Positions 305 through 62,422 of a DNA stretch of 64,000 nt are shown here, one piece after another; within the stretch, counting starts at the first letter, position 1; every line of letters starts with the position of its first letter. Position numbers and translations under genes: made by a program. Source of the stretch: Enterococcus phage vB_OCPT_CCS1; sequence record ON113170.1; one strand, given 5' to 3'. The notes below the pieces were generated by a model. It did no database searches. It was not told the origin of the DNA and saw only the letters and a program-made list of their open reading frames with translations.

Positions 305-422
305 CAAACAAGGCGGGACGTGTTCCCGCCTTACATAAAAAAAATAAAAAAATTTTTATGTTTATCTATTGATAAAAAGCAATAAATTTGATAATATAAA
401 GACATAGAAAGGGAGCATAAGA

Positions 423-701
423 ATGTTAAATATAGAATATTTATATCAGCAACTAGAGAGAAGTTTTTACCCAATAAACGACGTTAAACGTTTATCAGTA
501 TTACACAAGCAAGAAATTAACAACTTAAAGAACCAGACAAGAAAAGGAGCTACACCGGAACACGTAGCCAAACAATTGGAAGAACTAGCAAAAGAAATGA
601 ACGAGCTCTCAAATCTTGCCTGTTCATTAGAGTTATATATTAGAAGTGTAAAGAACCAACTAGGCAACGAACTAGGGAAAAACGTGAATAAACACGAATA
701 A
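423..701 (+). CDS. hypothetical early protein
   Basis: ORF track 92 aa; upstream TTGATA-N17-TAATAT promoter-like element and AAGGGAG RBS. Confidence 0.6.
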   Translation: MLNIEYLYQQLERSFYPINDVKRLSVLHKQEINNLKNQTRKGATPEHVAKQLEELAKEMNELSNLACSLELYIRSVKNQLGNELGKNVNKHE

Positions 702-788
702 AAAAATTTAAAAAAAGTTATTGACAAAAGACAATAAATGCTATACAATAAACTTGTAAGATAAATAAGAGAAAGAGGGAACTAAAAA

Positions 789-1202
789 ATGAGTAAAAAA
801 GTTGAAACAGTTATCACACTAATGAAACGAGCAGAAAAGAAAGGGAAAGCAATCAAACGAGCAAGACAAAGAGACCGATGGGGCGTGGGAGACTTAAAAG
901 AAGTCTATAGAGTAGAAAACGATGGTAAAACAGTAAGCTTATACCACTATGAAACACTAACCGCAAAAGTTGACCTTGAAAACATGCAACTAATAGAGAT
1001 ATACGGGGAAAGCCGTTCGGATAGTGATAGCGTGGCAACTTTCTTATCTGAGTTAGGTTTTAAAAACTTCGACTTTGGTTTTAAACCCGTGAACGGTGGT
1101 TTTTGGTTATTCACTTACAAGGACGGGGAAAGACAAGAAGTCTACCTAGATGAACACGGGGAAAATGCCGTTATAAATGAATTTAACCGGGTACAGGCAT
1201 AA
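789..1202 (+). CDS. hypothetical early protein
   Basis: ORF track 137 aa; upstream TTGACA-N17-TACAAT and AGAGGGAA RBS. Confidence 0.6.
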   Translation: MSKKVETVITLMKRAEKKGKAIKRARQRDRWGVGDLKEVYRVENDGKTVSLYHYETLTAKVDLENMQLIEIYGESRSDSDSVATFLSELGFKNFDFGFKPVNGGFWLFTYKDGERQEVYLDEHGENAVINEFNRVQA

Positions 1203-1227
1203 CAAAGAGAGAGAGGAACGGGAAACA

Positions 1228-1419
1228 ATGAAAATAATAACTAGAAAAAGTTATATATTCAGAACTACAGACACACGACTACAGCAATTTAATGATAAGA
1301 GGGTACTCGTTATTAATAAACTATCAGAAGAAGAGGCGGAAGAGTTAAACATGTATAATGTTTGCTTAAACGGTGTAGCTTGCTTTACTGTATACGAGGA
1401 CGAGTTACACGAGGTATAG
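1228..1419 (+). CDS. hypothetical small protein (start moved to ATG with RBS GAGGAACGGGAAACA)
   Basis: ORF track 1177..1419; internal ATG at 1228 has a purine-rich RBS. Confidence 0.4.
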   Translation: MKIITRKSYIFRTTDTRLQQFNDKRVLVINKLSEEEAEELNMYNVCLNGVACFTVYEDELHEV

Positions 1420-1500
1420 GGAGGGAGAGAAGAAACAAGGCAAGAAAGAAAGAAAGAGAGAGAGAAAGGGGGGGGGAGGTAAAGAAGAAAAAGACCTTAG
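1419..1500. repeat. ~80-nt polypurine (GA-rich) tract
   Basis: GGGAGGGAGAGAAGAAACAAGGCAAGAAAGAAAGAAAGAGAGAGAGAAAGGGGGGGGAGGTAAAGAAGAAAAAG, almost no pyrimidines on the plus strand. Confidence 0.7.
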
Positions 1501-2025
1501 AACCTTATAAACCAAAAAGGAGCAAAGAACCCCAGATTTTCAAAACCCGAGCTTTTCGGAACCCGCTTATCAGGGCGCACACTGTTTTCCTATCATTCTA
1601 GCACAAACAGGAAGCTAGAGGGCGCACAATAGCCCTAGGAAGCCACAGGAAGCCCGTAGCGGGGTTTTACATAGATTTATATATAATTATCCATAAATAA
1701 ACAGAACTATGTTAGAATGCTTTAAAATAGCGTAAAATAAATTGAAATATTTAATAGTTTATACTTGCATCGCATCTCTATACATGGTATAGTATAGATA
1801 GTTAAAGGAGAGCTTCACTTATTCGGACGAGAAACAAAACAAAAAAAGTTGAGTTTAATGCTTGACAAGGTAAAATATACATGATAATATAAGGGTGTGG
1901 TTAGGGTTAAACCTTACAGGAAAACGAGCACGACCACACAAAGAAAAAAATTTAAACTTTTCTATTGACATTAAACAATAACTTTGATATACTTAATACA
2001 GATAAGAGAAAGAGAGTGAATAAAA

Positions 2026-2292
2026 ATGAAACTAAAAGACTTTATCAAACTAGCAGAATCCAAGGGCGCTACATTAGAGGCATACAACGAGCTAGGAGGC
2101 TATGAACTAACTAGAGGGAACATAGTAGACCAGAACCCGGTTTTGATTGCTTACATGCAAGGAGCTTACAGTGTAGAAATACCAAACAAGGAACTAGAAA
2201 ATAAGGAGCTATCGGAATTAGTATTTGTTTATAAGAATGTAAGTCTTATCTATCCAAATGAAAAAGAACTATTGTCAGAATTAAAACTATAA
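2026..2292 (+). CDS. hypothetical early protein
   Basis: ORF track 88 aa; TTGACA-N17-TATACT promoter at ~1964-1993; RBS AGAGAGTGA. Confidence 0.55.
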   Translation: MKLKDFIKLAESKGATLEAYNELGGYELTRGNIVDQNPVLIAYMQGAYSVEIPNKELENKELSELVFVYKNVSLIYPNEKELLSELKL

Positions 2293-2357
2293 AAATAATA
2301 TAATACTAGTGAGGAGGCTTTTCCCCCTCACTTACACAAAAAAGGGGCTAACTAAAA

Positions 2358-2600
2358 ATGACCAAGCAACTAATGGAAGAAGCGCTTGACTACCTAAAGA
2401 AAGAGGGAAAACAAATCACTAGAAAACACGTTACACAGTACGGCTTTATCATGTATGAACATCCGACCTGTTCAAGTGCAATTATTATGGTAAAAGATGA
2501 CAAAATTGTAGGACAAACAAACAAAGCTAAAATATTAGAAAACAATAGCAGAACAAGGGAAAAACTAGAAACATCTGACTTTTTAGAATTTACATTATAA
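2358..2600 (+). CDS. hypothetical protein
   Basis: ORF track 80 aa; RBS AAAGGGG upstream. Confidence 0.5.
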   Translation: MTKQLMEEALDYLKKEGKQITRKHVTQYGFIMYEHPTCSSAIIMVKDDKIVGQTNKAKILENNSRTREKLETSDFLEFTL

Positions 2601-2617
2601 AGGGGACTGACTAAAAA

Positions 2618-2926
2618 ATGAATAAAAAGCTAATTATTTCATACCAAAAAGAGTGGGACGAAAACGGGACGACATACCGGCAAACGGTAAAAATACCAAT
2701 GGAATTATTTAACCATATCAATGCTAAACTAAAAGAAGCTATCAAGGACAAGAAGCATAACACTATCACAGATAATTTTAAACATGTTTATATCAAAACG
2801 CTACACAGGGGGAAAAATTACACGACTATCACAACAAGTGGCATTGTTAGGTATGAATTGGAGCAACTAGGTGTAGACGTTAGCAGATACTTAACAGAAA
2901 GAAACACAATTATAGAATCATATTAA
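2618..2926 (+). CDS. hypothetical protein
   Basis: ORF track 102 aa; RBS AAGGGGA upstream. Confidence 0.5.
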   Translation: MNKKLIISYQKEWDENGTTYRQTVKIPMELFNHINAKLKEAIKDKKHNTITDNFKHVYIKTLHRGKNYTTITTSGIVRYELEQLGVDVSRYLTERNTIIESY

Positions 2927-2998
2927 TATAACGGCATATAAAGCCCGTAGCGAGGTTTTAGCGGGCTTTATATATAAATACCTTAAGGAGGAAACAAG

Positions 2999-3139
2999 GT
3001 GCTTACAGTGGAAAATAAGGGCGTTAGGTGGCTAGTGAGTAAAGAAGCATGGAAAGCGGGCTTTGCTATGGAGGTGCTGGGCTTGCCAGATTGTAAGGTT
3101 AAAACCGTGTTAAAAGCGGGTTATAAAATTATTATCTAA
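2999..3139 (+). CDS. possible small GTG-start protein (46 aa)
   Basis: AAGGAGG then 6 nt then GTG; open to TAA at 3139; below ORF-track size cutoff. Confidence 0.3.
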   Translation: MLTVENKGVRWLVSKEAWKAGFAMEVLGLPDCKVKTVLKAGYKIII

Positions 3140-3228
3140 CTATATAATCTTTTTTATTGACATTAAACAATAACTTTGGTATTCTATACTTGTAAGATAA
3201 ATAAAGCAAATGAAAGAGAGTGTTAAGA

Positions 3229-4994: not shown

Positions 4995-5222
4995 TTAGTT
5001 TTCCTCCGTACTTAATGGGTCTTGCAGATAGAAGTCAGATATTCCCCATTTGTTTACATAAGTGATTTCTCCTTCTTTACTACCTGTCACCTGTTTTAGT
5101 TTGTATGTGACTTCTTCCCCGTCTTCACGAGAGTTTCCGTCTTTGTCCACTACAAACAATGGAGTCTTCTCCGTGTCTAATAGCTCATAACGTTCACCTG
5201 TTAGCTTGTGTATATAAATCAT
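4995..5222 (-). CDS. hypothetical protein
   Basis: ORF track 75 aa. Confidence 0.5.
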   Translation of the reverse strand: MIYIHKLTGERYELLDTEKTPLFVVDKDGNSREDGEEVTYKLKQVTGSKEGEITYVNKWGISDFYLQDPLSTEEN

Positions 5223-5223
5223 G

Positions 5224-5457
5224 TTATCTCTCCTTTAGAATAATACACATATAGATACAATCACCATAGTTTTCACTGTCATATGTGATATAGTCTACTT
5301 CATAGTCCAGTAATTGTTCCGGGAAATCTTTTGGGTAAAACTCCGTACACCACGACTGTTCTGCACAATAGGGTTCCCCGTCAAAGTCGTTAATATAGAT
5401 TCGGAAAGAGTCACCAACTGATAAGATGTCTCTAACTTGTCTAAGTGTTAGTTTCAA
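5224..5457 (-). CDS. hypothetical protein
   Basis: ORF track 77 aa. Confidence 0.5.
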   Translation of the reverse strand: MKLTLRQVRDILSVGDSFRIYINDFDGEPYCAEQSWCTEFYPKDFPEQLLDYEVDYITYDSENYGDCIYMCIILKER

Positions 5458-9236: not shown

Positions 9237-9817
9237 TCTTCCCCCGTTTTCTTTTTAATAAGATTAAAAACGTCATCAACGTCTTTAGGTGTTGTTGCAC
9301 CAAATAACTGACATAGTTCACGTTCAATACGTTCTTGCTGTACTCTGGCATTGAGTATTTTTTTATATTCAGTTATCAACTCAACATATCTGATAAGTTG
9401 GTCTGGGTCTAGTTTATTTAAGTCAATGTCTAATTTTGTAGGTACAGGTCTAATATTAAAGTAACTTGCCCTTACACTTGCTCCTGATTTTCGCAGTAAG
9501 CTTTCTGCGCTCGCTTTTTCTATTTCATCTGGACGGTCAATATAAAGATAAATGAGTGGACTATTTGGATACCATGAGTGCTTCCCCTCATATTTGTACT
9601 TAGCCTCAGCGATAACGTATTTTCTTCCCTTAACTAGAGGTGCCTCCGTATCTTCAAAACTTTTATCTACTCCTGCTCCAATGTACTCAACAATGTCACC
9701 CTCTTTAAATGGGAAATAATCAAATGGAACAACTTCATGTACACCTCGCATATTTAAACTATGCTGAGCTTCTACAAACTTCATAAAATCGAAATGTTTT
9801 TCATCAACAAGTGGCAT
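9233..9817 (-). CDS. hypothetical protein
   Basis: ORF track 194 aa; 4-nt overlap with the downstream gene. Confidence 0.5.
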   Translation of the reverse strand: MPLVDEKHFDFMKFVEAQHSLNMRGVHEVVPFDYFPFKEGDIVEYIGAGVDKSFEDTEAPLVKGRKYVIAEAKYKYEGKHSWYPNSPLIYLYIDRPDEIEKASAESLLRKSGASVRASYFNIRPVPTKLDIDLNKLDPDQLIRYVELITEYKKILNARVQQERIERELCQLFGATTPKDVDDVFNLIKKKTGEE

Positions 9818-36012: not shown

Positions 36013-36243
36013 TCAGTTTTTGTCATCAGGTTCTAATAGCTTGTCCGCAGGCATATCAAAAATCCGAGCTAATTTAGCTTGATTATTTGCTCTGGGTTTT
36101 TTGATTCCATGCTCCCAATAGGATACAGTTGACCAGTGTACACCTAGTTTTTTAGCTACAGAACGCAAGGATTCATGCTTTTCTTCACGAACACGTTTCA
36201 GCACCAAGGGTTTTGGCTTGCTTTCCACGATTCTCCCCTCCAT
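36013..36243 (-). CDS. XRE-family HTH regulator
   Basis: LRSVAKKLGVHWSTVSYWEHG helix-turn-helix. Confidence 0.65.
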   Translation of the reverse strand: MEGRIVESKPKPLVLKRVREEKHESLRSVAKKLGVHWSTVSYWEHGIKKPRANNQAKLARIFDMPADKLLEPDDKN

Positions 36244-36286: not shown

Positions 36287-37822
36287 TTATTTAAGTGCTT
36301 CTTTTACAAAGTCGTATTCTGGTTTATTTAACACAGACAACATCATTTCTTCTGGGGAAGTAACTTCTCCACCTAGTACTTGCGATAAAATATTTGTGGA
36401 GAATCCAGAAACTAACGCAACATTATCTTCGTTAAACCGTACTGGTAGATTATCATGACGAGATTGTACATTCCAGAAAATAATAGCAGGTAACTCGTAG
36501 CCATGATTTGCAAACTCCTGTTTTGCTTGCTCAAAGTTTGTTCTTTGTCCTCGTTCACAAGCAGTATTAAATTCCATATCACTGATAATAATAATCTTGG
36601 ATGGTAGTTCTTCTTGCGGTGTGTTATGCTTAACCGCAGTATCAAGAATCAATCGGAACACTGCTTGAATATTAGTAGAATAGCCAACTCTTGCACGGTT
36701 ATATACTCTCATACGGTCATACACAGTATCCTGTGGATTCAAATATACTAAACTAGGTTCTGATGCAAATGTAATGAAGTGATTAGCGAAAGTACCGTTT
36801 AATTTTTCAGCCGTGTATAATGCCAAACCTTGCGCAACATCCCAAGGGTAAACCCCGTTCGTTTCTGTCCAAGTCATTGAACTAGAAGAATCAGCAACTA
36901 CAATTGCGTTATCTTCCACATCCTTAATAACATCATCTAAAGACTGCCAAGTAGCTTCTAAAGAACGATTTACACCCTGACCTGCACGTGCTTTACGGTA
37001 TGCTCCTGTAATCTCGTGAGGTAATACCAAACTTGCATTAAGCTTTCCTTCACCCGACTCCACCTTTTCCATAAGCGCTTCATATTCATCTGGCATGTGT
37101 AATTGCAAAGCTTTACGGTATTTGAATAATGCTTTAGAGGATACTTGGTTCAAATCAATCTTATGGTATTCCTTGCTTGCTAACCGAACTTCAATTACAT
37201 TTAAGTAATCACGTAATTTAGCAATCATTTTACGATAACGAGTTAGACCTGCTTTGCCTTCAAAACCTAAATAGTTAGCAATACGAGCACCTTGATTACG
37301 TTTCTTACTATTTGGAGAACTTACATTAGCTAACCATTTACCTAGTAATGAAACAGGTTTACCCTCTGACATATTTTTAATATCTGATGTTAGTTGGTTC
37401 CCGATGATACGTGCACCTTCTGTATCCACAAAGTGGATACTACGTTTGTGTGCGTATTCCATAGTTTCAAATAAGTCTGTCCAACGACCAACATATGCCA
37501 TGTACTCCATTAAAGTAACGATTACTTGCTTGTTTTGGTTACGACCATCCACTAAGTATTTGATTGCTTCTAGGTAAGCGGAACGTTCACCCAATCCACC
37601 TAAACGGATATTACGTAAGTGTACCAAATTGCGTAATGCTAACTCTGGGTTTTCAGCATAAGCTTTAGAAAACATGTTTCGTACATCTTCTAAACGACCA
37701 CGCATAGCCCCTGCTTGTGCAAAGAAGTCTAAGTTAGCGTTTAAAGTTGATGTGTAAGTTTTAGCTCCATTTTCTGTATGTCCAACAGTTGTTTCTTCTT
37801 TTAGGTTGTCTAAAAATGACAT
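36287..37822 (-). CDS. rsr: Ro60/Rsr-like protein: helical TROVE-like N-terminal region + C-terminal vWA domain (also consistent with phage DUF2828-type annotation)
   Basis: 511 aa; ~310-aa helical N-terminal part; C-terminal vWA with MIDAS VVADSSSSMTW (DxSxS) and downstream IIISDMEF; architecture and size match Ro60; promoter 37864-37892 and RBS AAAGGAGAGATG. Confidence 0.55.
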   Translation of the reverse strand: MSFLDNLKEETTVGHTENGAKTYTSTLNANLDFFAQAGAMRGRLEDVRNMFSKAYAENPELALRNLVHLRNIRLGGLGERSAYLEAIKYLVDGRNQNKQVIVTLMEYMAYVGRWTDLFETMEYAHKRSIHFVDTEGARIIGNQLTSDIKNMSEGKPVSLLGKWLANVSSPNSKKRNQGARIANYLGFEGKAGLTRYRKMIAKLRDYLNVIEVRLASKEYHKIDLNQVSSKALFKYRKALQLHMPDEYEALMEKVESGEGKLNASLVLPHEITGAYRKARAGQGVNRSLEATWQSLDDVIKDVEDNAIVVADSSSSMTWTETNGVYPWDVAQGLALYTAEKLNGTFANHFITFASEPSLVYLNPQDTVYDRMRVYNRARVGYSTNIQAVFRLILDTAVKHNTPQEELPSKIIIISDMEFNTACERGQRTNFEQAKQEFANHGYELPAIIFWNVQSRHDNLPVRFNEDNVALVSGFSTNILSQVLGGEVTSPEEMMLSVLNKPEYDFVKEALK

Positions 37823-37892: not shown

Positions 37893-38060
37893 CGCCTTTT
37901 ATAAATAAAAAACCCATCCATTTAAGAATGAGTTTTTTCATCTTAACCAGTAGTTAAGCGGGGGGGGCGCAACACCTTTTATTTAACTTGTCATTATAAT
38001 ATCAAGAACCACAGGCTTAATAATTAGATTTGAAAGGTTTAGTCTATTAGTAGTTGATTG

Positions 38061-38140
38061 CTGTAGGGTTCTTTATGCTCTGGCAACCTAGTAGGTTAGA
38101 GCTATGGCAAATTGCCAAAACCTTTTTATTATGTACAAGA
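38061..38140. repeat. structured ~80-nt repeat, copy 1 (two hairpins supported by compensatory changes)
   Basis: GCTCT-[AACCT-agt-AGGTT]-AGAGC then TGGCA-aat-TGCCA then AAAACCTTTTTAT. Confidence 0.5.
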
Positions 38141-38156
38141 ATCTATTTTATACGTT

Positions 38157-38213
38157 GCTCTAACCAAACTGAGCTACGGGAGGATGATTCCTCCCGGCAG
38201 GACTCGAACCTGC
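38157..38213 (-). ncRNA. tRNA-mimic module 1 (T arm + closed acceptor hairpin + D arm; no anticodon arm): YrlA-like Y-RNA candidate
   Basis: on the minus strand: GCAGG-TTCGAGT-CCTGC (T arm), CGGGAGG-aatcat-CCTCCCG (7-bp hairpin where acceptor strands would pair), TA, GCTCAGTTTGGTTAGAGC (canonical D arm). Confidence 0.5.
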
Positions 38214-38244
38214 GACCCACGGCTCCATAGGCAATAAAAATCGC

Positions 38245-38325
38245 TGTTAGATTCTTTATGTTCCGGCACCCATTAAGGATGGAACTATAGCTATGCTAAA
38301 ACCGTTTTATTTATGTAACAAGAAC
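38245..38325. repeat. structured ~80-nt repeat, copy 2
   Basis: GTTCC-[CCAT-taagg-ATGG]-GGAAC then TAGC-tat-GCTA then AAAACCGTTTTAT; stems covary with copies 1 and 3. Confidence 0.5.
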
Positions 38326-38338
38326 GCATTAACTTTAA

Positions 38339-38390
38339 GCTTTACCAATTAAGCTATACCACCAATGGTGGCAGTTGGATTCGAACCAAC
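38339..38390 (-). ncRNA. tRNA-mimic module 2 (same permuted architecture)
   Basis: GTTGG-TTCGAAT-CCAAC (T arm), TGCCACC-att-GGTGGTA (hairpin), TA, GCTTAATTGGTAAAGC (D arm). Confidence 0.5.
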
Positions 38391-38427
38391 AACTCACATT
38401 TTTCAGATGTATTAGTTTTAAAAATTT

Positions 38428-38510
38428 GCTGTGGCGTTCTTTATGTTCCGGCTACCTGTTAGGTTGGAACTATGACATATGTCAAAACCTTTTTATCTTG
38501 TCTTTATAAT
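38428..38510. repeat. structured ~80-nt repeat, copy 3
   Basis: GTTCC-[ACCT-gtt-AGGT]-GGAAC then TGACA-ta-TGTCA then AAAACCTTTTTAT. Confidence 0.5.
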
Positions 38511-41388: not shown

Positions 41389-42132
41389 GTTACCTCCTTA
41401 TTATGTATAACCCATGAAGCATCATGGGGGGACTGTAGTATGCCCAACCTGCGGGGATGCTCCGCTCTGAATCCGTAGAAATCAGCCACAATTCGATATT
41501 TATTTAATGAAAAAATTAGATAGGATTCGACTGCTTGACAAAGGCAGTCTATGGAGTAGACGGGACTCGAACCCGTGTCCTAACGTAGAACCATACAAAA
41601 TTCTACGGGCGTAGTTACTAGTTTTAATCTACGTTAAGGTTACAACTAATAACTGAAATTACCTTAACTGAGTGGTAAAGCCTCTCCTGAGTTATCCACT
41701 TTTACCTCAGCGTTGTCGGTTGATGAGTCCTCTAGGTAGAACCGACCCTAGTCTAGAGGGGTAAGTGTGTAGCTAGTCTAAAACTAGGCTACAGCTAATA
41801 ATTCTTCGTTTTTAGCAGTTATATTTACTGCGATGATTAAGTCATCACTCTGCCCGCTATTCATATACTCCTTACGCCAGTCGAAACCAAAACTACCCCA
41901 ACATAAGAATTTCTTTTGACTAACCCTACCCTTCCGGCAGGGTCTAATCAAAAGTATACAATTAAAAAAATGAAAATGAGTTACGGAAAATGTAACGTCT
42001 CCACCACCGGACTATAAGGGTAAGTTGTTCCGGTCTTTAACCTAAGTACTTTACTTAAATCTAACAGGACAGCCTTCATTACGTAAACTACTTAACCATG
42101 TAAAACGTAAAGGTCAATTTCCGTTGACCTAA

Positions 42133-46732: not shown

Positions 46733-47986
46733 AATGTTTCCCCAACCACCGCCACCTAGGGGATTCGTACGTCTACGTGAGTTTTTTGGTTATAGTTCCT
46801 TGTTTAAGACAAGGAAGTACGAGTGGACTACCAATTTACCACTCTGCGGTTCTGATTGCGGTAGGTGGGATATGTAAGATAAAAAGACCACTCTTAGAAT
46901 GATTTAATCTGTAAAAAACACATCGCATAAACGAGATGCAGTTATAGCTCTATCAAGCAACCTACACCGATTCCGTCGATTACTACCGACATCGCCTTGC
47001 TCGTGTACTTTGAGCGCCCATTTCCAACCCTCGGTTGCTAATGTTTCTCTCCTAACCTACACCTGAGAGTGGCACACGTCTGTGCTAGTATTTTATGCCT
47101 ATTAACTGATTCGCAGGCACACTGCTTAATTCAGCCAACCAATCGGCATCCGATAAGATTGATTGTTTCCGTAGGTTCTTTAAGTCACTGGAGTGGTACT
47201 GCCCCACTCACGCCTATTAAAGTGTTAACTTAATAGATAAAAACTACTCATAACAGGTTTACTACCATAGCATTCTCTACTTCCGCCACAGTGACATGTT
47301 TAAAAACTCAAAACTTAATAGATTAAGGGCTTTTCTTCCTGCTTCATATACACTCACTGCATTCGGTCACATACTCAGAGAGGCTGAACCATCGGGAGCT
47401 ACCCGATAGCTTCTCTCTGCCTTTAATGTATGGTCTAGCACGGTGGCTAACAACGTTCACCTAAACATTCAGCTATTAAAAGTATTAATTAACATATATC
47501 CTTATGTCTTCTATAATATTTTCATCAAAAGCTGACTTAGGCTACTTGTACCAAGGTCTCTTGTTAAACCTGTATTTCTACAGTTCTCGTCAAAGGGAGT
47601 CTTTTGAGTTTTCCAAGGTCTGCCAAGCTTCTCACACTTCCACCTAACTTGGATTCTTTTCCACAGGAACGTCTATTGTATCCCCCAAGAGTCTTGTACC
47701 TTACAATCCATGTATACTCCACATAACGCTTAACTGATATTAGCTTTTACTAATAGTTACTCCTATGTTACCATAAGACCTACCTGCAACCCAAAGCACT
47801 ATCGCACCTTCGGTTACATTCAGATTCACGCCACGCTATCCTAGCAAGCTGTTCAAACTTTCTGCACTAGGTTCAAAATCTATTAAGTTTTCAATTTTTA
47901 ACCACTAACTTGTGGTGTAATACTAATATAGCATAACATTACAAAGTTGTAAACACCTTTTTGTAAGTTTTTTTGATTTTTTTTTG

Positions 47987-48473: not shown

Positions 48474-48668
48474 ACAAACTTAACAACTTTTTTCTTAACT
48501 ACTGATTCAGCAACTTACTCAATAGTTAAAGACTTAAAGAAAGAGGAAGTAATTGAGGTATGTCAATCACTAACTAAAGTATACAACATTTTTATCATCC
48601 TGACAACAACTAAATACAAAAAGTTCAAAAAAGATTATAAATAGTTAAATTATCAGAATATTCAAATT

Positions 48669-48802
48669 AATGTCCTATTTTAAATTTTTGACCTCCTTAT
48701 ATACTTAATACTATATATTAAATATATATATCTAAATTATATAAATATTAGACTATATATTATTAATATATATAAGACTTGCAAAAAATTAAAATAGGAC
48801 AT
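48669..48802. repeat. AT-rich element A bounded by an 18-20-nt inverted repeat (AATGTCCTATTTTAAATTTTT ... AAAAATTAAAATAGGACATT)
   Basis: arms are exact reverse complements ~95 nt apart; core TCCTTATATACTTAATACTATATAT; second copy at 52853..52971. Confidence 0.6.
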
Positions 48803-48852
48803 TTTTCTGACAATTCACTTTTAGATAAAAAGAAAGAGAGCAAAATGCCCTC

Positions 48853-49191
48853 TTACCGTGTTTCAAAGTATTCCTTGATTGTATACTCTCTAGCTTCTTT
48901 AGCTTCATCAGTTTCATCTTTAGGAGCTAAATACAAGTCAGTAATTGTAGCAGGTACCTCTACCATCTTGTAGTCAATAAAAGTAGCTTGACGTAGATTT
49001 AAGTATCGAATACCTGTTGTTCTATCAGTACCTGTATGAACAGGCAAGAAAGTTAATTCTTTACCTCTGACAGAGCCATTAGCTTGTGTTAGTGCATCAA
49101 CTACAGTTCCGCCCATATAGCGTGGAAATAGGTAAACCTTGTCAGTACCTACTGTAATTTCTGCGACCTTTTCGTGTGTTGGATAGTTCAC
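48853..49191 (-). CDS. hypothetical protein
   Basis: ORF track 112 aa; RBS AAAGGAGAAATT. Confidence 0.5.
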   Translation of the reverse strand: MNYPTHEKVAEITVGTDKVYLFPRYMGGTVVDALTQANGSVRGKELTFLPVHTGTDRTTGIRYLNLRQATFIDYKMVEVPATITDLYLAPKDETDEAKEAREYTIKEYFETR

Positions 49192-49245
49192 TTATAATTT
49201 CTCCTTTCAGAATATGCTATAATTACAGTATAAGTATAACATATT

Positions 49246-49593
49246 CTATGGTTTAAAAATGCTGAACACGTAAGTCACAACCGCACCGAGAACAATCATG
49301 AAGATGTTCTCCACGATGTCTCTTTTATGGTCAAACTCTTTATCGTTTACACCTTCGAGAGCATCAATGGTTTCTTCCAGTTTTGTAATCTGGTACGTAA
49401 GATGTGAATATTTCTCTTCATGAACAGCTAACCTTTTATCAAGACTGTTAACGATGTCCTTCAATTCACTAACTGCATTATTCAGTTCTGTGTTGTCCTG
49501 TTTAATGCCCTTCTCAGTTAGTTCTCCATGTTGGAGCTTGTCTTCCAATCGTTGCAGTCTTAATACTAGGTCACCTATTTGGTAATCGTTCAT
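49246..49593 (-). CDS. coiled-coil protein with C-terminal TM anchor
   Basis: ORF track 115 aa; RBS GAGGGGGAGCAC. Confidence 0.5.
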   Translation of the reverse strand: MNDYQIGDLVLRLQRLEDKLQHGELTEKGIKQDNTELNNAVSELKDIVNSLDKRLAVHEEKYSHLTYQITKLEETIDALEGVNDKEFDHKRDIVENIFMIVLGAVVTYVFSIFKP

Positions 49594-49632
49594 TTGTGCT
49601 CCCCCTCTCGGTTGTATAGCTCAATCTCCCGG

Positions 49633-49890
49633 TCAGTTAGAAAACCACATGTAACCGCCTATGCCCAGAATACATCCGACAAGGTAAATAATTGGAGTAT
49701 ACAGCCCAATGAAGAGCATAACCACGCTACCAACACTAAGTCCGTATAATATCAAAAGATACTTATACGATGCCAAAGGACTTAAATCTGCTTGCAGTTT
49801 TTTGTACTGTATAGCTCGGGTGACATAGTAGGATGCTGAGTAAACGAACAACTGTAGTAATAACATAGCAATAAATGCTAGTCGGTACAT
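49633..49890 (-). CDS. small polytopic membrane protein (holin-like)
   Basis: 85 aa, three hydrophobic segments. Confidence 0.4.
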   Translation of the reverse strand: MYRLAFIAMLLLQLFVYSASYYVTRAIQYKKLQADLSPLASYKYLLILYGLSVGSVVMLFIGLYTPIIYLVGCILGIGGYMWFSN

Positions 49891-50008
49891 TCTATCGCCT
49901 CTCTTCTTTCCTAGAGCTATCTTTAATATAGTACACCAAAGCCTTTATAATCAGGTGTGCTAGATTAAATATGTAGGCTAAAAAATACAAACGGAAGAGT
50001 GAGAAAAA

Positions 50009-50278
50009 GTGAAGGTACGGAAAAAACTATTATACAAATCAATTTTTATCACCATCTCTGTTATCATCATGATTTGTGCAAGCAAGCTGATTGCAGATGT
50101 GCTAGGCTTAGAACAACATTTTACAGCAACAATGCTTGTAGGAGGTTCTTTGTGGGCTTGGATAGCTAGTATTGTCTTTGATTCTTATGAGAAGAGAAAA
50201 AAGAAGGACAATCTACAGCAACAGCTTAATGAAGCACTGCGTGATTTAAAAGAGATAAAAGCGTTAATCAAAAAATAA
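50009..50278 (+). CDS. membrane protein (GTG start)
   Basis: ORF track 89 aa; two TM helices then KKK and coiled coil. Confidence 0.45.
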   Translation: MKVRKKLLYKSIFITISVIIMICASKLIADVLGLEQHFTATMLVGGSLWAWIASIVFDSYEKRKKKDNLQQQLNEALRDLKEIKALIKK

Positions 50279-50288
50279 TTAATAAGGG

Positions 50289-50576
50289 GTGGAGGATATG
50301 TCCCTTACAAGAGAAGAAATAAAGCAAAAAAGGCAGTATATTTTTAGCAAAGCTCAAAAGACGACAAATATACGAAAAGGGGATAAACGCATAGCAAGTG
50401 CTACACGGATGTGTGCAGTATGTGGAAGACCGTTGTCTAGACTTGTTCTTACTAATGGTTCTGCAATAGTTACTACAGCACATGTAAGCTGTAAGATGTC
50501 AGATTTAGTACGATTGAACATGTGTGAAGACATACGGTCTTGCTATGCGTATACAAGTAAAAAGGGGGAGGAATAG
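50289..50576 (+). CDS. hypothetical Cys-containing protein
   Basis: ORF track 95 aa; RBS AGGGGTGGAGGAT. Confidence 0.45.
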   Translation: MEDMSLTREEIKQKRQYIFSKAQKTTNIRKGDKRIASATRMCAVCGRPLSRLVLTNGSAIVTTAHVSCKMSDLVRLNMCEDIRSCYAYTSKKGEE

Positions 50577-50580
50577 CCAC

Positions 50581-51009
50581 ATGAGTATGGCAGACCGTAT
50601 TAAAGAAAATGCTGAACAAAAGAAAATGGAACGTACATCCGAACAACGATTACGTGACACATTTAATAATGCTTCTCTCACGTTAATTAACCAGTTCATG
50701 GCTAAAGTTATGGCAGGTTCAATAGATATAGATGACGTTGGAGATTTAACCCGTCTATTCCAAATCTACATGCAGATTAATAATATCAATGCAGGAATGC
50801 AAGAGGGAACTGGTCAGTTACCTGCTCTTAGTGCTACGCAAAAAGATATTATTGCAGACAAGGTAAGCACTGAAAAGGCTACCATAGATGGAGAGGAGGA
50901 GGAAGTTGTTTCGTTGGAGGAATTAGCTAAATTATCGGATGAAGAAATTGATAAGATGCTATTGGATAAGGAAATCCAAATGAACAAAGAAAACGAAGCA
51001 ACGTTTTAA
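50581..51009 (+). CDS. possible terminase small subunit
   Basis: ORF track 50524..51009; start moved to MSMADRIKEN with RBS AAGGGGGAGGAA; position immediately 5' of the large terminase; acidic C-terminus. Confidence 0.4.
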   Translation: MSMADRIKENAEQKKMERTSEQRLRDTFNNASLTLINQFMAKVMAGSIDIDDVGDLTRLFQIYMQINNINAGMQEGTGQLPALSATQKDIIADKVSTEKATIDGEEEEVVSLEELAKLSDEEIDKMLLDKEIQMNKENEATF

Positions 51010-52844
51010 TGACAAATAAAGCACAACATATTGCTAAAATGGCAAAAGAAATGTATGGGACGGACAAAATAACAACTGCACAGCTTGCCTACATCACAGA
51101 CATGTTAACTCCGTCCACATATTTACTAAGAAACCACTCCGTTCGTAATCATCCGATTACATTTATGATTTCCGGACGTGACCAACAAAAAGCCCAAGCG
51201 CATAGACCTTGGCAAGTAAAAATTATTAATGACCAACATCGAACAAAGGCAGTTATTAAATCACGGCAATTAGGGCTTTCAGAAATGGGAGTAGGAACCA
51301 TGCTACACTTTGCAGATACACATAGTTACGATGCAGTTAAGTGTTTGTATACCTTCCCAACAAATGAACAAATGACTAAATTTGTACAAACACGTCTTGA
51401 CCCAGTATTACAACGTGGTTACTACAGTACGATTATTGACCCAGAAGTAGACTCATTAAAGGCTAAGAAGATTCGTAATAGCTTTTTATACTTCCGTTCA
51501 AGTTCTAAACCGGGAGCTGTAGAAGGGGTCGATATTGATTACCTGTCTATGGATGAGTACGACCGTGTTCCTGCATTAGCCGAAGCTTCTGCATTGGAAT
51601 CTATGTCATCTTCTCCATATAAGATTGTTACTCGTTGGTCTACTCCATCAGCTCCTGATGTAGGTATCCATGCTTTGTTTGAACAGTCTGACCAATACTG
51701 GTATCTACACAAATGTGACAAGTGCAATCATTATAACCAAATGAACTATGAAGACTATGTACCGGAGGCACCAGTGGAACGCAGAGGGAATATTCTTTGT
51801 GTAAACCCTAAAGGGGTAGACCCAATTGCCAAAACAGTTGTGGATGGCTCCTTCCAATTCGTTTGTCAAAAATGTGGAGAACCATTAGACCGTTGGTACA
51901 ATGGTATATGGGTTCCTAAATACCCAGACCGTACTAAAAATGGTCTAGGTATTCGAGGATACATGATTTCTCAAATGAATGCTGTTTGGGTATCTGCTGA
52001 CCAATTAAAAACAAAAGAATTAACATCACTATCAAAACAAGCGTTCTATAACTATACATTGGGTTACCCTTATGCTGACCAGAAACTTACAGTTAATGCT
52101 AGTGACGTAGAACGTAATAGACGTGGAGACCTCCCAGAATCTCCTAGAGACCGTGGAGATTACAAGTTTATCTCTGTAGGTATTGACTGGGGAAACAGAC
52201 ACTGGGTGTCCATTCATGGCGTTAGAACGAATGGTCAAGTAGATTTAATTAAATTGTTCTCTGTAGGTAAAGCTAACCCGTTAAACCCTGATGCAATTGA
52301 TACAGATATTCAGTCAATTCGATTACAATTAGCACCATATGAACCTGATATTATCGTTGCTGATGTTGGTGACTCTGGTGATAAAGTTGCTAAACTGATT
52401 CAGATTTATGGTAAAGACCGTGTATTTGGTTGTGTATACCCATCTACACCTAAATCTACAGGTAACTTAGTGCCTAGTTGGAATGTTCAAGGTAACAAGG
52501 TATCTGCTGATAAGCTAATGCAGAATAAACGATACATCTCAAACATGAAAGATGGAGTTATTGGTTTCTACCATAAAATGGATAGTGAACTAATGCTTTA
52601 CATTGAACACTGGGGAAATGTAGTAATTCGTGATGAAGAGGATGAAAAATCTCCTACAGGATTCCGACAAACTATTGGACGTAAAGGTGATGACCACTAT
52701 TCACAAGCTAGTGTTTATTCCATGTTAGGTTATGAACATTTGATGAACGTATTTACAGGGGCAGATGACTACGGGTTTAACTCTGATTGGATTTCTACTC
52801 AATTGAACCCTACACCTCCTGATATTTTTACTCAATTTACTTAA
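51009..52844 (+). CDS. terL: terminase large subunit
   Basis: 611 aa directly upstream of portal; ATPase-like N-terminal half (KSRQLG.SE region) and nuclease-like C-terminal half with acidic DxxD/DWG blocks. Confidence 0.75.
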   Translation: MTNKAQHIAKMAKEMYGTDKITTAQLAYITDMLTPSTYLLRNHSVRNHPITFMISGRDQQKAQAHRPWQVKIINDQHRTKAVIKSRQLGLSEMGVGTMLHFADTHSYDAVKCLYTFPTNEQMTKFVQTRLDPVLQRGYYSTIIDPEVDSLKAKKIRNSFLYFRSSSKPGAVEGVDIDYLSMDEYDRVPALAEASALESMSSSPYKIVTRWSTPSAPDVGIHALFEQSDQYWYLHKCDKCNHYNQMNYEDYVPEAPVERRGNILCVNPKGVDPIAKTVVDGSFQFVCQKCGEPLDRWYNGIWVPKYPDRTKNGLGIRGYMISQMNAVWVSADQLKTKELTSLSKQAFYNYTLGYPYADQKLTVNASDVERNRRGDLPESPRDRGDYKFISVGIDWGNRHWVSIHGVRTNGQVDLIKLFSVGKANPLNPDAIDTDIQSIRLQLAPYEPDIIVADVGDSGDKVAKLIQIYGKDRVFGCVYPSTPKSTGNLVPSWNVQGNKVSADKLMQNKRYISNMKDGVIGFYHKMDSELMLYIEHWGNVVIRDEEDEKSPTGFRQTIGRKGDDHYSQASVYSMLGYEHLMNVFTGADDYGFNSDWISTQLNPTPPDIFTQFT

Positions 52845-52852
52845 AAAAGCAA

Positions 52853-52971
52853 AATGTCCTATTTTAATTTTTCTACGTCCTTATATATTAATACTATATA
52901 TCTATATACCTATATCTAGTTATTAAGTATATATAGTATAATATATTATATAAGGGAGACAAAAATTTAAA
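52853..52971. repeat. AT-rich element B (second copy of the inverted-repeat-bounded element)
   Basis: AATGTCCTATTTTAATTTTT ... AAAAATTTAAAATAGGACATT; core TCCTTATATATTAATACTATATAT shared with copy A; same orientation. Confidence 0.6.
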
Positions 52972-53087
52972 ATAGGACATTTTTATCAAATTAGCTATTG
53001 ATTGACAAAAAATAATATGCTATTATACTACTTGTCAATAATAGCACTAGTTATTTTTCTTGTCATAACAATAAAGGAGACGTTTAC

Positions 53088-53933
53088 ATGAATGACAATC
53101 AAGAATACCAAGCTCTTGTTGATAATCTTCTTAGTTCTGTTCCAGAGATTAAACCTGTAGAAGCTACAGTTAGTAAGTCCTTTTTAGAAGGTATGCTAGG
53201 TAAGAAGTTAAACTACGGGTACGTTATATCAGAAAATGAAAAATTATCAAAAGACTATTCACATATTGTGAAGGCTTATGGTTTTAACTCCTTTTATGAC
53301 CTATACTGCTACGCTGATAGTTGTGATTCACTAAATGACTATTTAATTAAAGGCGGTCAAAAAGATTTATCAAAGTTGAAGCCAGTTAAAAGACGAGTAA
53401 TGAGAAATGGTAAAATGATGACAACTACTATCTACGAAGACAGTTCCGGAGAAAACGATGATAAAAACCCACTAGATAAGGACACTCAAACAGAGGAAAA
53501 TGTTGAACCAAGAAATGCTAGAGATTTAAGCAAAACAATTATTGGGGATGACCATAATGGTATAGACCCAAAACAAATTGCTAAACTTAAAACTGAGGCA
53601 GGCAGGTTAAACGGGACATTTTCAACTGATTGTTCTTCATACTTAGTTCTTCAAGGAGAAACCGGAGAACTTGGTGGTGTGGCAGGTTATCGTAAAGAGG
53701 GTAGCTATTTATATCTAGCTTTCTATCAATCAGACGACCTTACAAGTGGAGTGGCTTATGTAGCATTTACACAACTATTGTTACGTGCTCGTAAACTTGG
53801 CTTAGGTGCTAAGATTGATGCTACTGATGACCCGTTAGCACTAGAATTATTTAAAGAATACGGACTTAAAAAAAGTGGTAGTTGTTATATAATTTCCAAG
53901 AGTTCCCTACTGGAAGCGCTTGGGGAGCCATGA
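53088..53933 (+). CDS. hypothetical protein
   Basis: ORF track 281 aa; promoter TTGACA-N16-TATACT and RBS AAAGGAGA. Confidence 0.5.
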   Translation: MNDNQEYQALVDNLLSSVPEIKPVEATVSKSFLEGMLGKKLNYGYVISENEKLSKDYSHIVKAYGFNSFYDLYCYADSCDSLNDYLIKGGQKDLSKLKPVKRRVMRNGKMMTTTIYEDSSGENDDKNPLDKDTQTEENVEPRNARDLSKTIIGDDHNGIDPKQIAKLKTEAGRLNGTFSTDCSSYLVLQGETGELGGVAGYRKEGSYLYLAFYQSDDLTSGVAYVAFTQLLLRARKLGLGAKIDATDDPLALELFKEYGLKKSGSCYIISKSSLLEALGEP

Positions 53934-54757
53934 TTTCAACTTTTGAGTTATTTTTAATTTTAGCCTTCTCAACAACTGTGTTTATATGCTATAATCTTTT
54001 TGTAGCTCAAACAGTCAAGACAATTTTTGATTTGAGAAAAAAGGCACAAGTTGTGCTAACTGAAAGAGCAACTGAGCTAACGAAGAAGTTAACAAACATA
54101 CTGAAAGGGGATGTACAGGAGTTGCCAGAGAAAGAAAACGTAATTATTAACGAACAAACACTCTCTGACTTGTTAGTCGAAAAAGCAAGCGATGCCGACT
54201 ACAAATTGTTCATTGAGAAACTGACAGAGATTGTAAAGGACTTATATTCAAATTATCAATTTCTTCGTCAAGACCCACAGCCCGATGACTTCATGTCAGG
54301 TTATTTTTTAGGGTTCCAAGTTTTTAGAGAGGAATACCCTGTCGAATACGAGTATTTATTCCGATTAGCTATTGACCGTGGGTTAGACGATATTAAAATC
54401 AATAAACTCTTTGTCGAAGCTTTACAAAACGGAGAGGTATTACCATTAGGGGATGCCATTGTTGACCCTAACTTGTCCGGATGCAGTTCTATCCTTCAAG
54501 CACAAGAAGTACGTGTAAACATTGTATTCGCACCTAAAGCATACATGGAGCGTAAAGAAGAGTTGATTGAAGAGAAAACTGCTGAAATGGAAAAGCAGAA
54601 GAAAGAGCAACAAGAACTAGCAATCCAAAAAGACAACGTGGTTAAATCTGCACGTCTTGCTGAGGCTGTCATTAACGAATTAGTGGATGAAGTCGCAGAA
54701 AAACACGAACTACAAGAACTCGTTAAACAAATTAAAGAAAGCATGAGGTATTTCTAA
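53930..54757 (+). CDS. membrane-anchored coiled-coil protein
   Basis: ATGA start/stop overlap with previous gene; N-terminal TM FELFLILAFSTTVFICYNLF. Confidence 0.5.
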   Translation: MISTFELFLILAFSTTVFICYNLFVAQTVKTIFDLRKKAQVVLTERATELTKKLTNILKGDVQELPEKENVIINEQTLSDLLVEKASDADYKLFIEKLTEIVKDLYSNYQFLRQDPQPDDFMSGYFLGFQVFREEYPVEYEYLFRLAIDRGLDDIKINKLFVEALQNGEVLPLGDAIVDPNLSGCSSILQAQEVRVNIVFAPKAYMERKEELIEEKTAEMEKQKKEQQELAIQKDNVVKSARLAEAVINELVDEVAEKHELQELVKQIKESMRYF

Positions 54758-61382: not shown

Positions 61383-62398
61383 TGTCTAAAACAATCAATG
61401 ACATTATCGAAGATTTCGATTCAAAAGTGAATGTACAGGAAGTTTCTAAATCTATTGAAGACGAACAAGTAGAACCTGTACAGGAAGAAGCAGTTGAAGC
61501 ACCAGAAACAGTTGAAGAAGGTGTGGAAAGTGACAAGCCGGAAGAACAGCCTGTTGAAGCTGAGGAAGTTAAAGAGGATGCTAAACCAGAATCCGAACCT
61601 GCTGAGTCAGTTGAGAAGTCAGAACCAGAGTCCGAAGTCGCAGAAGAAGCTACGGAACCAGAAGTGGAAGAAGTAGAAAAATCTGATAAGGAATCCGATG
61701 AAGAAGAAAAGAAATCTTCTGACAAAGAGGACGACAAAGAGGACGACAAAGACGATAAAAAGGCTAAAAAAGATAAAGAAGATAAAAAAGAAGATAAAGA
61801 CAAGGAAGATGAAGACAAAGAAGATGTTAAAAAATCTGATGAGTCCGAAGTCTCAGAACCTGTAGAGAAATCTACTATTTCTCCACAAGATATTCTTGGT
61901 GGATTTGAAGCAGTATTCAAAAATATGGCAGGTCTTGTTGATGTCCAAAAATCTTTAACAGATACTATTACAGAATTAAAATCTGAAATTGTAAGCTTAC
62001 GTGAAGCTAGAGAAGCAATTTCTATTGAACCTGAGGAAGTTAATAAATCTATTCTTTTAGATAAAACTAGTGAAGTAACTGTAGAAGGTAAAGCAGTAGG
62101 ATTTGTTACTAAATCTGTAGATGTGCAACCAGATGTAACTTCTGAACAAGAAGACGTTGTTGAAGTAGTAGTAGAAGGTGCTGAACAACAAGAAGAAGCT
62201 CCTGATAAATCTGATGAAGAACAATTGTTTGACAGTGTTCGTGGAATCCGTGACGACTTAATGAGCACATATACTCGTGTTGCAAGTACCGGACAAGCTC
62301 CTCGTGGTGAGTTAGAGGAAATTCGTCAATTATGGGGACGTATTAAATCCCAAGACGAACTAGCTCGTGCACAAGCATTCATTGATAAATACAAATAA
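61382..62398 (+). CDS. scaffolding protein (highly acidic, E/D/K low-complexity)
   Basis: 338 aa, ~40% D+E, coiled-coil C-terminus; position between protease and capsid. Confidence 0.6.
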   Translation: MSKTINDIIEDFDSKVNVQEVSKSIEDEQVEPVQEEAVEAPETVEEGVESDKPEEQPVEAEEVKEDAKPESEPAESVEKSEPESEVAEEATEPEVEEVEKSDKESDEEEKKSSDKEDDKEDDKDDKKAKKDKEDKKEDKDKEDEDKEDVKKSDESEVSEPVEKSTISPQDILGGFEAVFKNMAGLVDVQKSLTDTITELKSEIVSLREAREAISIEPEEVNKSILLDKTSEVTVEGKAVGFVTKSVDVQPDVTSEQEDVVEVVVEGAEQQEEAPDKSDEEQLFDSVRGIRDDLMSTYTRVASTGQAPRGELEEIRQLWGRIKSQDELARAQAFIDKYK

Positions 62399-62422
62399 AT
62401 TTACTAAAATGTAAATTTTTTT
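62397..62422 (+). terminator. terminator after the scaffold gene
   Basis: AAATTTAC-taaaat-GTAAATTT then TTTT. Confidence 0.5.

Follow-up and report, generated by a model that had tools for sequence, protein, structure and literature searches.

Near-palindromic AT-rich elements that flank the terminase genes in an Enterococcus phage are members of a family conserved in Herelleviridae and putative replication origins

Introduction

What role is played by the two AT-rich elements, bounded by inverted repeats, that bracket the terminase genes of Enterococcus phage vB_OCPT_CCS1? Our study addresses this question in a stretch of 64,000 nucleotides of this phage (sequence record ON113170.1), referred to here as the window, in which an original prediction made from the sequence alone had located both elements, which we call copy A and copy B. 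We have found that they are more general than that prediction had seen: there are three copies per genome, and they occur family-wide. Sequence comparison suggests that they act at the DNA level, in cis, as members of a family that is conserved in Herelleviridae and whose centre melts easily. The reading that we favour, with a probability of roughly 0.45, is that they are replication origins, three per Schiekvirus genome, that would work as protein-bound unwinding cassettes. They are an unusually symmetric, multi-copy addition to the phage origin-like AT-rich elements with initiator boxes, and their function is putative.

Replication initiation is unmapped in the SPO1-like myoviruses (Herelleviridae), which comprise most of the therapeutic and biocontrol phages of Gram-positive bacteria (the phage K, P100/A511 and EFDG1 types). 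An invariant 10-bp box that flanks the AT-richest spots of the genome and is kept across three subfamilies makes initiation directly testable in medically used phages, gives phage engineering a defined element to avoid or exploit, and provides a stable landmark with which Herelleviridae genomes can be aligned and oriented. If the elements were only operon-boundary signals, their interest would be modest. Our study establishes their anatomy, conservation, AT extremity, synteny, position between transcription units and distance from the genome termini.

Anatomy of the elements

Across the 64 kb, there are exactly four occurrences of the 15-mer AATGTCCTATTTTAA, arranged as two inverted pairs: 48669-48683 on the plus strand with 48789-48803 on the minus strand, and 52853-52867 on the plus strand with 52967-52981 on the minus strand. 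At up to two mismatches, about 0.5 matches are expected, and four were reached in none of 100 shuffles. A profile built from all family members likewise finds just two copies in the window. The two inverted-repeat-bounded elements of the original prediction are therefore real and begin where it placed them; copy A ends at 48803, and copy B ends at 52981 instead of 52971, that is, 10 nt further. Their components are as follows.

48669-48803: element copy A, a near-palindromic cassette of 135 bp with perfect 15-mer inverted ends (nhmmer E 2e-18; single-strand DNA fold z = -8.6)
48671-48680, plus strand: left outer box of copy A, TGTCCTATTT
48695-48703, plus strand: left inner box of copy A, CCTTATATA, with its partner TATATAAG at 48769-48776
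48704-48768: AT-rich core of copy A, candidate DNA unwinding region
48792-48801, minus strand: right outer box of copy A, which reads AAATAGGACA on the plus strand
52853-52981: element copy B, 129 bp, with perfect 15-mer inverted ends (nhmmer E 1.5e-21; fold z = -6.5)
52855-52864, plus strand: left outer box of copy B, TGTCCTATTT
52888-52946: AT-rich core of copy B, between the inner boxes at 52879-52887 and 52947-52955
52970-52979, minus strand: right outer box of copy B

The inverted arms run for 40-48 nt at 77-83% complementarity (48656-48703 with 48769-48816 in copy A, 77%; 52851-52890 with 52944-52983 in copy B, 83%), and the two copies share 82% column identity when aligned. Both carry the block TCCTTATATA(C)TTAATACTATATAT on their left side only, so they stand in direct orientation, just as had been proposed. 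The core of copy A is the most AT-rich stretch of the window at 60, 80 and 100 nt (95% AT over 60 nt), and that of copy B is the third most AT-rich.

To define the conserved parts, we aligned six copies from two genera (copies A and B of the window, copy C of phage EFDG1, and copies A1, A2 and C of phage phiEF24C). The outer box TGTCCTATTT is invariant in all six. Read inward, each arm consists of this box, a T-rich tract (TAAATTTTT), 5-6 variable bases that are non-complementary in every copy, and an inner box (C/T)CCTTATA, whose CCTTATA / TATAAG pair is kept in the six Brockvirinae copies. Between the arms lies a core of 60-65 bp (95 bp between the outer boxes) with approximately 85-95% A+T, which conserves its composition and not its sequence. 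When folded as single strands and compared with shuffled sequences, five of the six copies give z values from -4.7 to -8.6, and the remaining one gives -2.3. Beyond the invariant box, the identity between the two arms of one element is 0.72-0.77, versus 0.72-0.82 between arms of different elements of the same genome. The arms of one element are thus no more alike than those of others, as expected from a lineage-consensus recognition site without pairwise compensation; this pattern points to arms that are instances of a lineage-wide protein site rather than partners under selection for a hairpin.

Several other properties were considered and set aside. A helical phasing of the two boxes was rejected because the box-to-box lengths are evenly spread over 110-131 bp, and the phased A/T tracts that had been described find no support, since AA/TT periodicity at 9-12 bp in the elements is no better than in shuffles (p 0.09-0.97). 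The promoter-like TTGACC-N18-TATATA is indeed present in copy A, and it is absent from copy B and from the copies of the genus Kochikohdavirus. No Rfam covariance model matched copy A or copy B at the gathering score. An intrinsic-terminator scan did not call the elements: the stem is AU-rich, the "loop" measures about 95 nt, and the U-tract is missing at copy C.

Copies in Enterococcus phages

A 5-kb query around the elements matched 40 Enterococcus phage records, 27 of them at 95-99% identity (EFDG1, phiSHEF16, Porthos, iF6 and others), on which basis we assigned the window to the genus Schiekvirus (Herelleviridae, subfamily Brockvirinae); the window is about 98% identical to EFDG1. The element is present in close relatives, as all of the approximately 30 Schiekvirus records carry it at 90-99% identity. 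BLAST reported six places per Schiekvirus record and three or more per Kochikohdavirus record. According to the profile search, the six are really three loci, each matched on both strands because the element is near-palindromic. In EFDG1, these loci lie at 54,255 (copy A of the window), 58,439 (copy B) and 104,333 (copy C). Copy C is beyond the window, 50 kb away; it sits between gp086 and the gene of a UvsW-like helicase that opens a module encoding this helicase, a "Rep" protein with a winged helix-turn-helix (wHTH) and a DnaB-like helicase, and it abuts a TTGACA-N17-TACAAT promoter. The element occupies this same place, directly upstream of the helicase/Rep module, in phiEF24C (Kochikohdavirus). 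There, locus A holds two tandem copies (140,693 and 140,870), and the 100-bp gap after terL contains an ordinary terminator and promoter and no element.

Among the AT-richest 80-bp stretches of each whole genome, the elements hold ranks 1, 2 and tied third in EFDG1 and ranks 1-3 in phiEF24C; the counterpart of the copy A core is the most AT-rich stretch of the entire EFDG1 genome. Each copy lies in a gap that leads from the end of one transcription unit to the sigma-A-like promoter of the next, at a distance from the -35 hexamer that varies from 0 to 63 bp. A U-tract follows the right arm at copies A and B and is missing at C.

Two apparent exceptions were discarded. What looked like a natural deletion of copy A in phage EFGrKN is an assembly gap, with NNN and a collapsed core within the element (MW004544.1; L059 ~590-650); evidently, the AT-rich palindrome breaks short-read assembly. 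The extra matches to TGTCCTATTT at EFDG1 98,921 and phiEF24C 41,600 coincide with the 3' half of a terminator hairpin of ordinary type (AAATAGGGCAC...GTGTCCTATTTTTT) that is conserved between baseplate genes (EFDG1, L003 48905-48935; phiEF24C, L005 41585-41615), where the 10-mer arises by coincidence of the stem and there is no copy of the element.

Copies beyond Enterococcus phages

We scanned bacterial genomes and a viral collection with the pattern TGTCCTATTT-N90-120-AAATAGGACA. The bacterial genomes gave 19 matches in unrelated taxa, where we estimate that about 17 would be expected by chance, and Enterococcus chromosomes gave none; the element is therefore not a host repeat. In the viral collection, the scan identified 26 loci; among them are a tandem pair in Listeria phage P100 and loci in Bacillus phages Bcp1, BM15/Hobo and Shbh1 and in Brockvirinae-like contigs of metagenomes. 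The box TGTCCTATTT reads the same in every one of the 26 non-redundant elements, which come from phages of Enterococcus, Listeria and Bacillus. The inner box differs by lineage (CCTTATATA in Brockvirinae, CCTATATTATA in Listeria phages, CCCTATTACCTTA in the lineage of L038 and L048) and keeps its inversion.

Position is also conserved. Listeria phages A511, P100 and cka15 and Bacillus phages Bcp1, BM15 and Shbh1 carry the element at the same junction as copy A, namely the tRNA-side end of a small "hemolysin" cluster that is divergent from the genes for a membrane protein and the small (TerS) and large (TerL) terminase subunits. This junction of "hemolysin" cluster and tRNA genes is syntenic in Herelleviridae of Listeria, Bacillus and Staphylococcus. 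Upstream of the helicase gene, Bacillus BM15 and the B. subtilis phage Goe20 have a more degenerate probable copy, marginal by profile (E ~0.1). In SPO1, no box was found within the first 50 kb, the part examined, and the gene order differs.

Among metagenomic relatives, the occupancy of loci varies further. In L032 (IMG/VR 3300021357_000003), a Brockvirinae-like phage, a tandem pair at locus A (5059-5347) is accompanied by a copy after terL (9413-9527). The latter matches the second copy of locus A, 4 kb away, almost perfectly but in the opposite orientation. This suggests that the loci have recently undergone duplication or gene conversion, and it shows that the element is free in its orientation. 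L038 has the element at locus B, next to a protein 49% identical to that of the window. In L048, it lies upstream of the baseplate operon (locus D), at a site that is empty in EFDG1, and is preceded by a canonical terminator. The outward TTGACA hexamers beside the arms in L038 and L048 were not taken as promoters because no matching -10 follows. The flanks of the 26 copies contain no consistent target-site duplication; where flanks match, they extend the inverted repeat instead.

In Listeria phage cka15, the gene for a small, basic virion protein precedes two long (TAGGA)n arrays, which lie at 126.3-126.7 kb (L060 31330-31680). This pentamer is the core of AAATAGGACA; there is no box at the arrays, and no such array occurs in the Enterococcus phages that we retrieved. 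The "transcriptional dead zone" of CKA15, a proposed origin, was considered as a possible element and rejected, as it holds these arrays and no box.

A putative origin and its candidate initiator

Four features lead us to favour replication origins: the AT-extreme core, the invariant inverted boxes, the copy upstream of the helicase/Rep genes, and the correspondence in position with the putative origin of phage K. In addition, three loci per genome are far too few for a class of promoters. In the mechanism that we propose, the recognition site would be the invariant TGTCCTATTT followed by the T-tract, and two inverted copies of it would flank a 60-95-bp core of approximately 85-95% A+T. A conserved phage protein would bind the two boxes head-to-head, the AT core between them would open, and the helicase/primase machinery of the phage would be loaded for bidirectional synthesis, by analogy with herpesvirus oriS/oriL or the SV40 origin. 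What we infer from the sequences is that a protein binds, which protein it is, that the core unwinds and that replication starts there.

In herpes simplex virus oriS/oriL and in the core origins of SV40 and papillomavirus, inverted initiator sites surround an A+T-rich centre. The herpes simplex origins resemble our elements in being palindromic, present in several copies per genome and located between transcription units. This likeness is one of mechanism only: there is no homology of sequence or protein, and the AT-rich centre measures about 18 bp there versus 60-95 bp here. The T4 origins oriF and oriG consist of a promoter with a downstream unwinding element, are primed through an R-loop and are several per genome. 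As in our case, the phage is large and lytic and has several origins (candidate ones here), an AT-rich unwinding element adjoins promoters and, at copy C, a UvsW-like helicase gene lies alongside. They differ from it in that an inward promoter is needed, whereas the inward promoter-like hexamers here are not conserved, and in that T4 has no inverted protein boxes.

The closest published case is the gap between gp190 and gp191 of the Staphylococcus Kayvirus phage K, read as the likely origin in three transcriptome papers: it is the only untranscribed locus, it has the lowest GC of the genome, and its two direct repeats were proposed as Rep-binding sites (PMC9241854, PMC11598898, PMC8952766). 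In the phage K sequence (NC_005880.2, 39.05-39.53 kb), we identified in this gap two tandem AT-rich units of about 190 bp. They occupy the same position as locus A, past a minus-strand cluster that diverges from the membrane-protein, TerS and TerL genes and before the tRNA genes; they are in tandem, as are the copies in phiEF24C and Listeria phages; and they mark the lowest-GC spot, which the literature reads as a Rep-bound origin. By eye, the layout of the boxes is also comparable: GTACGTATTT, 15 nt and CTCCTATTATATA at the start of each phage K unit versus TGTCCTATTT, 12 nt and CTCCTTATATA in Enterococcus phages. Among the differences, the phage K units have been described as direct repeats, their right arms are degenerate, their 10-mer is another one, and none near the helicase or terL has been reported. 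In phiSA12, the region of the helicase does not match the element profile.

Two proteins were considered as binders of the box. The sequences suggest the winged-helix Rep encoded between the UvsW-like and DnaB-like helicases (YP_009218354.1 in EFDG1) as the best candidate. This protein has a weak HTH_36/wHTH match, and its putative recognition helix reads RT(V/I/T)xRY(L/I) in Enterococcus, Listeria and Bacillus phages that have the box or a one-base variant; in Kayvirus, where the box differs (GTACGTATTT), the putative helix reads SALSNNL. The alternative candidate is a small regulator encoded in the window:

36013-36243, minus strand: XRE/HTH_3 regulator of 76 aa, with a nearly invariant SYWE.G.K.PR helix

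Conservation of the XRE regulator extends over the Herelleviridae of Enterococcus, Listeria, Bacillus and Staphylococcus, and the element precedes its gene by about 230 bp in Bacillus phages. Since it is present in all subfamilies, Kayvirus included, and its recognition helix is unchanged there despite the different box, its phyletic pattern does not discriminate it as the binder. The Rep helix changes with the box and the XRE helix does not, a contrast that tentatively favours Rep.

A wider formulation would combine these elements into a pan-Herelleviridae, multi-copy, symmetric origin cassette with inverted TGTCCTATTT initiator boxes and an unwinding core, read by the winged-helix Rep encoded between the helicases; we regard it as doubtful. 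If it were true, therapeutic SPO1-like phages (EFDG1, P100/A511 and Bcp1-type) would start replication at two to four palindromic origins of herpesvirus style, of which the one at the terminase/tRNA junction would be ancestral.

It is important to note that a number of points count against replication origins. The similarity of the phage K units to the element profile is not significant (nhmmer E 1.7-7.9), the phage K origin was itself deduced from RNA-seq and composition, and the correlation between Rep helix and box rests on essentially one outgroup. Each element has only two boxes, versus the iteron arrays of classical phage and plasmid origins. Copies A and B flank terminase genes, not replication genes; two copies 4 kb apart and a lineage-specific copy at a baseplate operon are not obviously needed for replication, and a generic operon-boundary element fits them equally well. 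Copy B is absent from Kochikohdavirus, with a plain terminator in that gap, and the helicase region of Listeria LP-048 has no copy. In the literature, our search found no replication-start data for any Brockvirinae phage and no Brockvirinae transcriptome, and the authors of the Listeria CKA15 study proposed a different AT-rich segment as the origin. Neither did it find any description of the Brockvirinae elements or of the TGTCCTATTT box, the motif giving only unrelated matches.

Gene context in the window

The genes and signals around copies A and B are listed below; the identification of the plus-strand block, which includes TerS and TerL, also draws on the EFDG1 annotation.

48578-48606, minus strand: sigma-A-like promoter TTGTCA-17-TATACT, 63 bp beyond copy A and directed towards tRNA-Asn and the tRNA array
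48834-48854, minus strand: canonical intrinsic terminator of the minus-strand cluster, a 9-bp stem followed by TCTTTTTATC, between the cluster and copy A
48853-49890, minus strand: three-gene cluster
48853-49191, minus strand: DUF7209 virion protein gene
49246-49593, minus strand: gene of a coiled-coil protein annotated as "hemolysin"
49633-49890, minus strand: membrane protein gene of the cluster
49891-50008: divergent gap between the genes at 49890 and 50009, the sole strand switch between the elements
50009-50278, plus strand: membrane protein gene of the plus-strand block
50289-50576, plus strand: phrog_1321 small open reading frame
about 50581-51009, plus strand: TerS gene
51009-52844, plus strand: TerL gene
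53002-53029, plus strand: sigma-A-like promoter TTGACA-16-TATACT (11/12), 21 bp past copy B, preceding the virion-protein gene at 53088

The enclosed genes are as stated in the original prediction (three short minus-strand genes, a membrane protein, TerS and TerL), together with a small open reading frame. The placement of the elements at strand-switch points in that prediction is incorrect: copy A has minus-strand genes on one side and the minus-strand tRNA array on the other, and copy B is flanked by two plus-strand genes. Locus A presents, in order, the terminator (48854-48834, minus strand), the element, the promoter (48606-48578, minus strand) and tRNA-Asn; locus B presents the terL stop at 52844, the element, the promoter at 53002-53029 on the plus strand and the gene at 53088. 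The cumulative GC-skew minimum of the window falls at about 49.5-50 kb, in the divergent gap between the two copies, a position that is compatible with an origin but confounded by the switch of transcription. At 39-48.4 kb, the minus strand encodes 24 tRNAs and a transfer-messenger RNA (tmRNA).

Alternative explanations

The main competitor of the origin reading, less probable than it but well ahead of the remaining alternatives, is a regulatory element at transcription-unit boundaries, an AT-rich spacer with bound protein between operons, whether an insulator, a roadblock terminator, an UP-like or activating region for the sigma-A promoter behind it, or an XRE operator. Every copy (A and B; C in EFDG1 and phiEF24C; D in L048) is preceded by a stop codon or terminator and followed by a sigma-A-like promoter, which speaks for such an element, as do the plain terminator that takes its place at locus B in Kochikohdavirus, the lack of any other terminator after the upstream gene at loci B and C, the gain and loss of loci between lineages, including at other operon starts, and the proximity to the family-wide XRE gene in Bacillus phages. 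The details fit less well, because the spacing to the -35 hexamer and the U-tract are inconstant, as noted above, and a separate canonical terminator already precedes both copy A and the L048 copy; that at 48834-48854 lies between the cluster and copy A, so copy A is not needed to end this operon. Moreover, single 10-mers that are not palindromic, with about 110 bp between them, do not resemble XRE operators, the XRE helix stays the same in Kayvirus though the box differs, and three sites are few for a general signal in a genome with dozens of operons. The bidirectional promoter/terminator cassette of the original prediction is, for similar reasons, only weakly compatible with our results: separate terminator and sigma-A-like promoters flank the elements, and neither the U-tract nor the -35-like hexamers are conserved. 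An AU-rich RNA hairpin of about 130 nt in read-through transcripts, serving as an RNase III site, a stabiliser or an unusual bidirectional terminator, appears unlikely. Bs-RNase III sites are present in SP82, a relative of SPO1, and a hairpin would account for the strong self-complementarity of five of the six copies, for an inner box that varies by lineage yet stays inverted, and for the location of copies B and C directly after stop codons. Against it stand the absence of pairwise compensation between arms beyond the shared consensus, the arm segment of 5-6 nt that is non-complementary in every copy, an outer box that is invariant across subfamilies, as a stem would not need to be, the lack of transcription of the syntenic region in phage K, the absence of an Rfam match for copies A and B, and the one copy that folds poorly (z = -2.3).

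Still less probable is a selfish element akin to a miniature inverted-repeat transposable element (MITE) that has spread to several intergenic gaps without a role for the phage. Bacterial MITEs and REP-like palindromes are likewise short, AT-rich, intergenic and multicopy with terminal inverted repeats, and our elements have TG...CA inverted ends around a small AT-rich body, several copies per genome, a variable occupancy of loci (B absent in Kochikohdavirus, D only in the L048 lineage), tandem duplicates and, in L032, one copy inverted relative to its near-identical partner. They differ from those repeats in having no consistent target-site duplication, no associated transposase with matching ends, and no host copies, the bacterial matches being at chance level and absent from Enterococcus. 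Furthermore, three subfamilies share the syntenic locus A and its invariant 10-mer, a sign of prolonged purifying selection on a fixed position and not of mobility. The least probable of all, which we judge very improbable, is a packaging (pac) site, a genome terminus or a pair of recombination sites that would invert or excise the terminase segment. terS and terL are nearby, two copies bracket a 4-kb segment, and in L032 the bracketing copies are inverted and nearly identical. Against this reading, the third copy is 50 kb away at the helicase. The ends of phage iF6 have been mapped by restriction analysis and rapid genomic-end amplification (RAGE) as direct terminal repeats of 2,108 bp, and PhageTerm placed a direct terminal repeat of 2.1 kb at 104,991-107,095 in phage 163. 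The iF6 record starts at the left terminal repeat and has element A at 44.4 kb, and the element of phage 163 is at 149,542, about 44 kb from its repeat. With mapped ends some 44 kb from element A, the elements are neither termini nor packaging boundaries, which contradicts the packaging role that had been suggested alongside that of an origin. The proposed mobilisation or inversion of the segment finds no support: each of the 28 relatives with coverage of at least 80% of the 5-kb query is collinear with it, and the copies in the window are direct, so an exchange between them would delete the terminase. Replication origins thus remain the reading that our evidence favours.

Other features of the window

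The tRNA array contains two further RNA genes. A full-length ROOL RNA (RF03087, 267.8 bits) lies at 47309-47895 on the minus strand and is probably the counterpart of the Kayvirus "lncRNA2" and of the hyper-transcribed unannotated regions near tRNAs in Listeria CKA15. The tmRNA, with the tag AKNEELLAVA, is located at 41549-41899 on the minus strand, within the array of 24 tRNA genes. Further to the left, three tandem repeats of about 184 nt (38053-38473, minus strand) contain sub-threshold matches to Y-RNA-like (YrlA) models at 38126-38241 (E 4e-9) and 38312-38419 (E 2e-5). They adjoin the gene of a 511-aa DUF2828+DUF7788 protein (36287-37822, minus strand), which is an "RNA-binding protein" in the EFDG1 annotation; protein and repeats are likely a module of a Ro/Rsr-type protein and Y RNA. 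Finally, a family of near-consensus sigma-A promoters with conserved flanks (TATTGACA...ACAATAA...TATAAT-like; 340-3204 and 62380-62410) recurs before small genes of the plus strand at the left end of the window; these are probably early host-takeover promoters.

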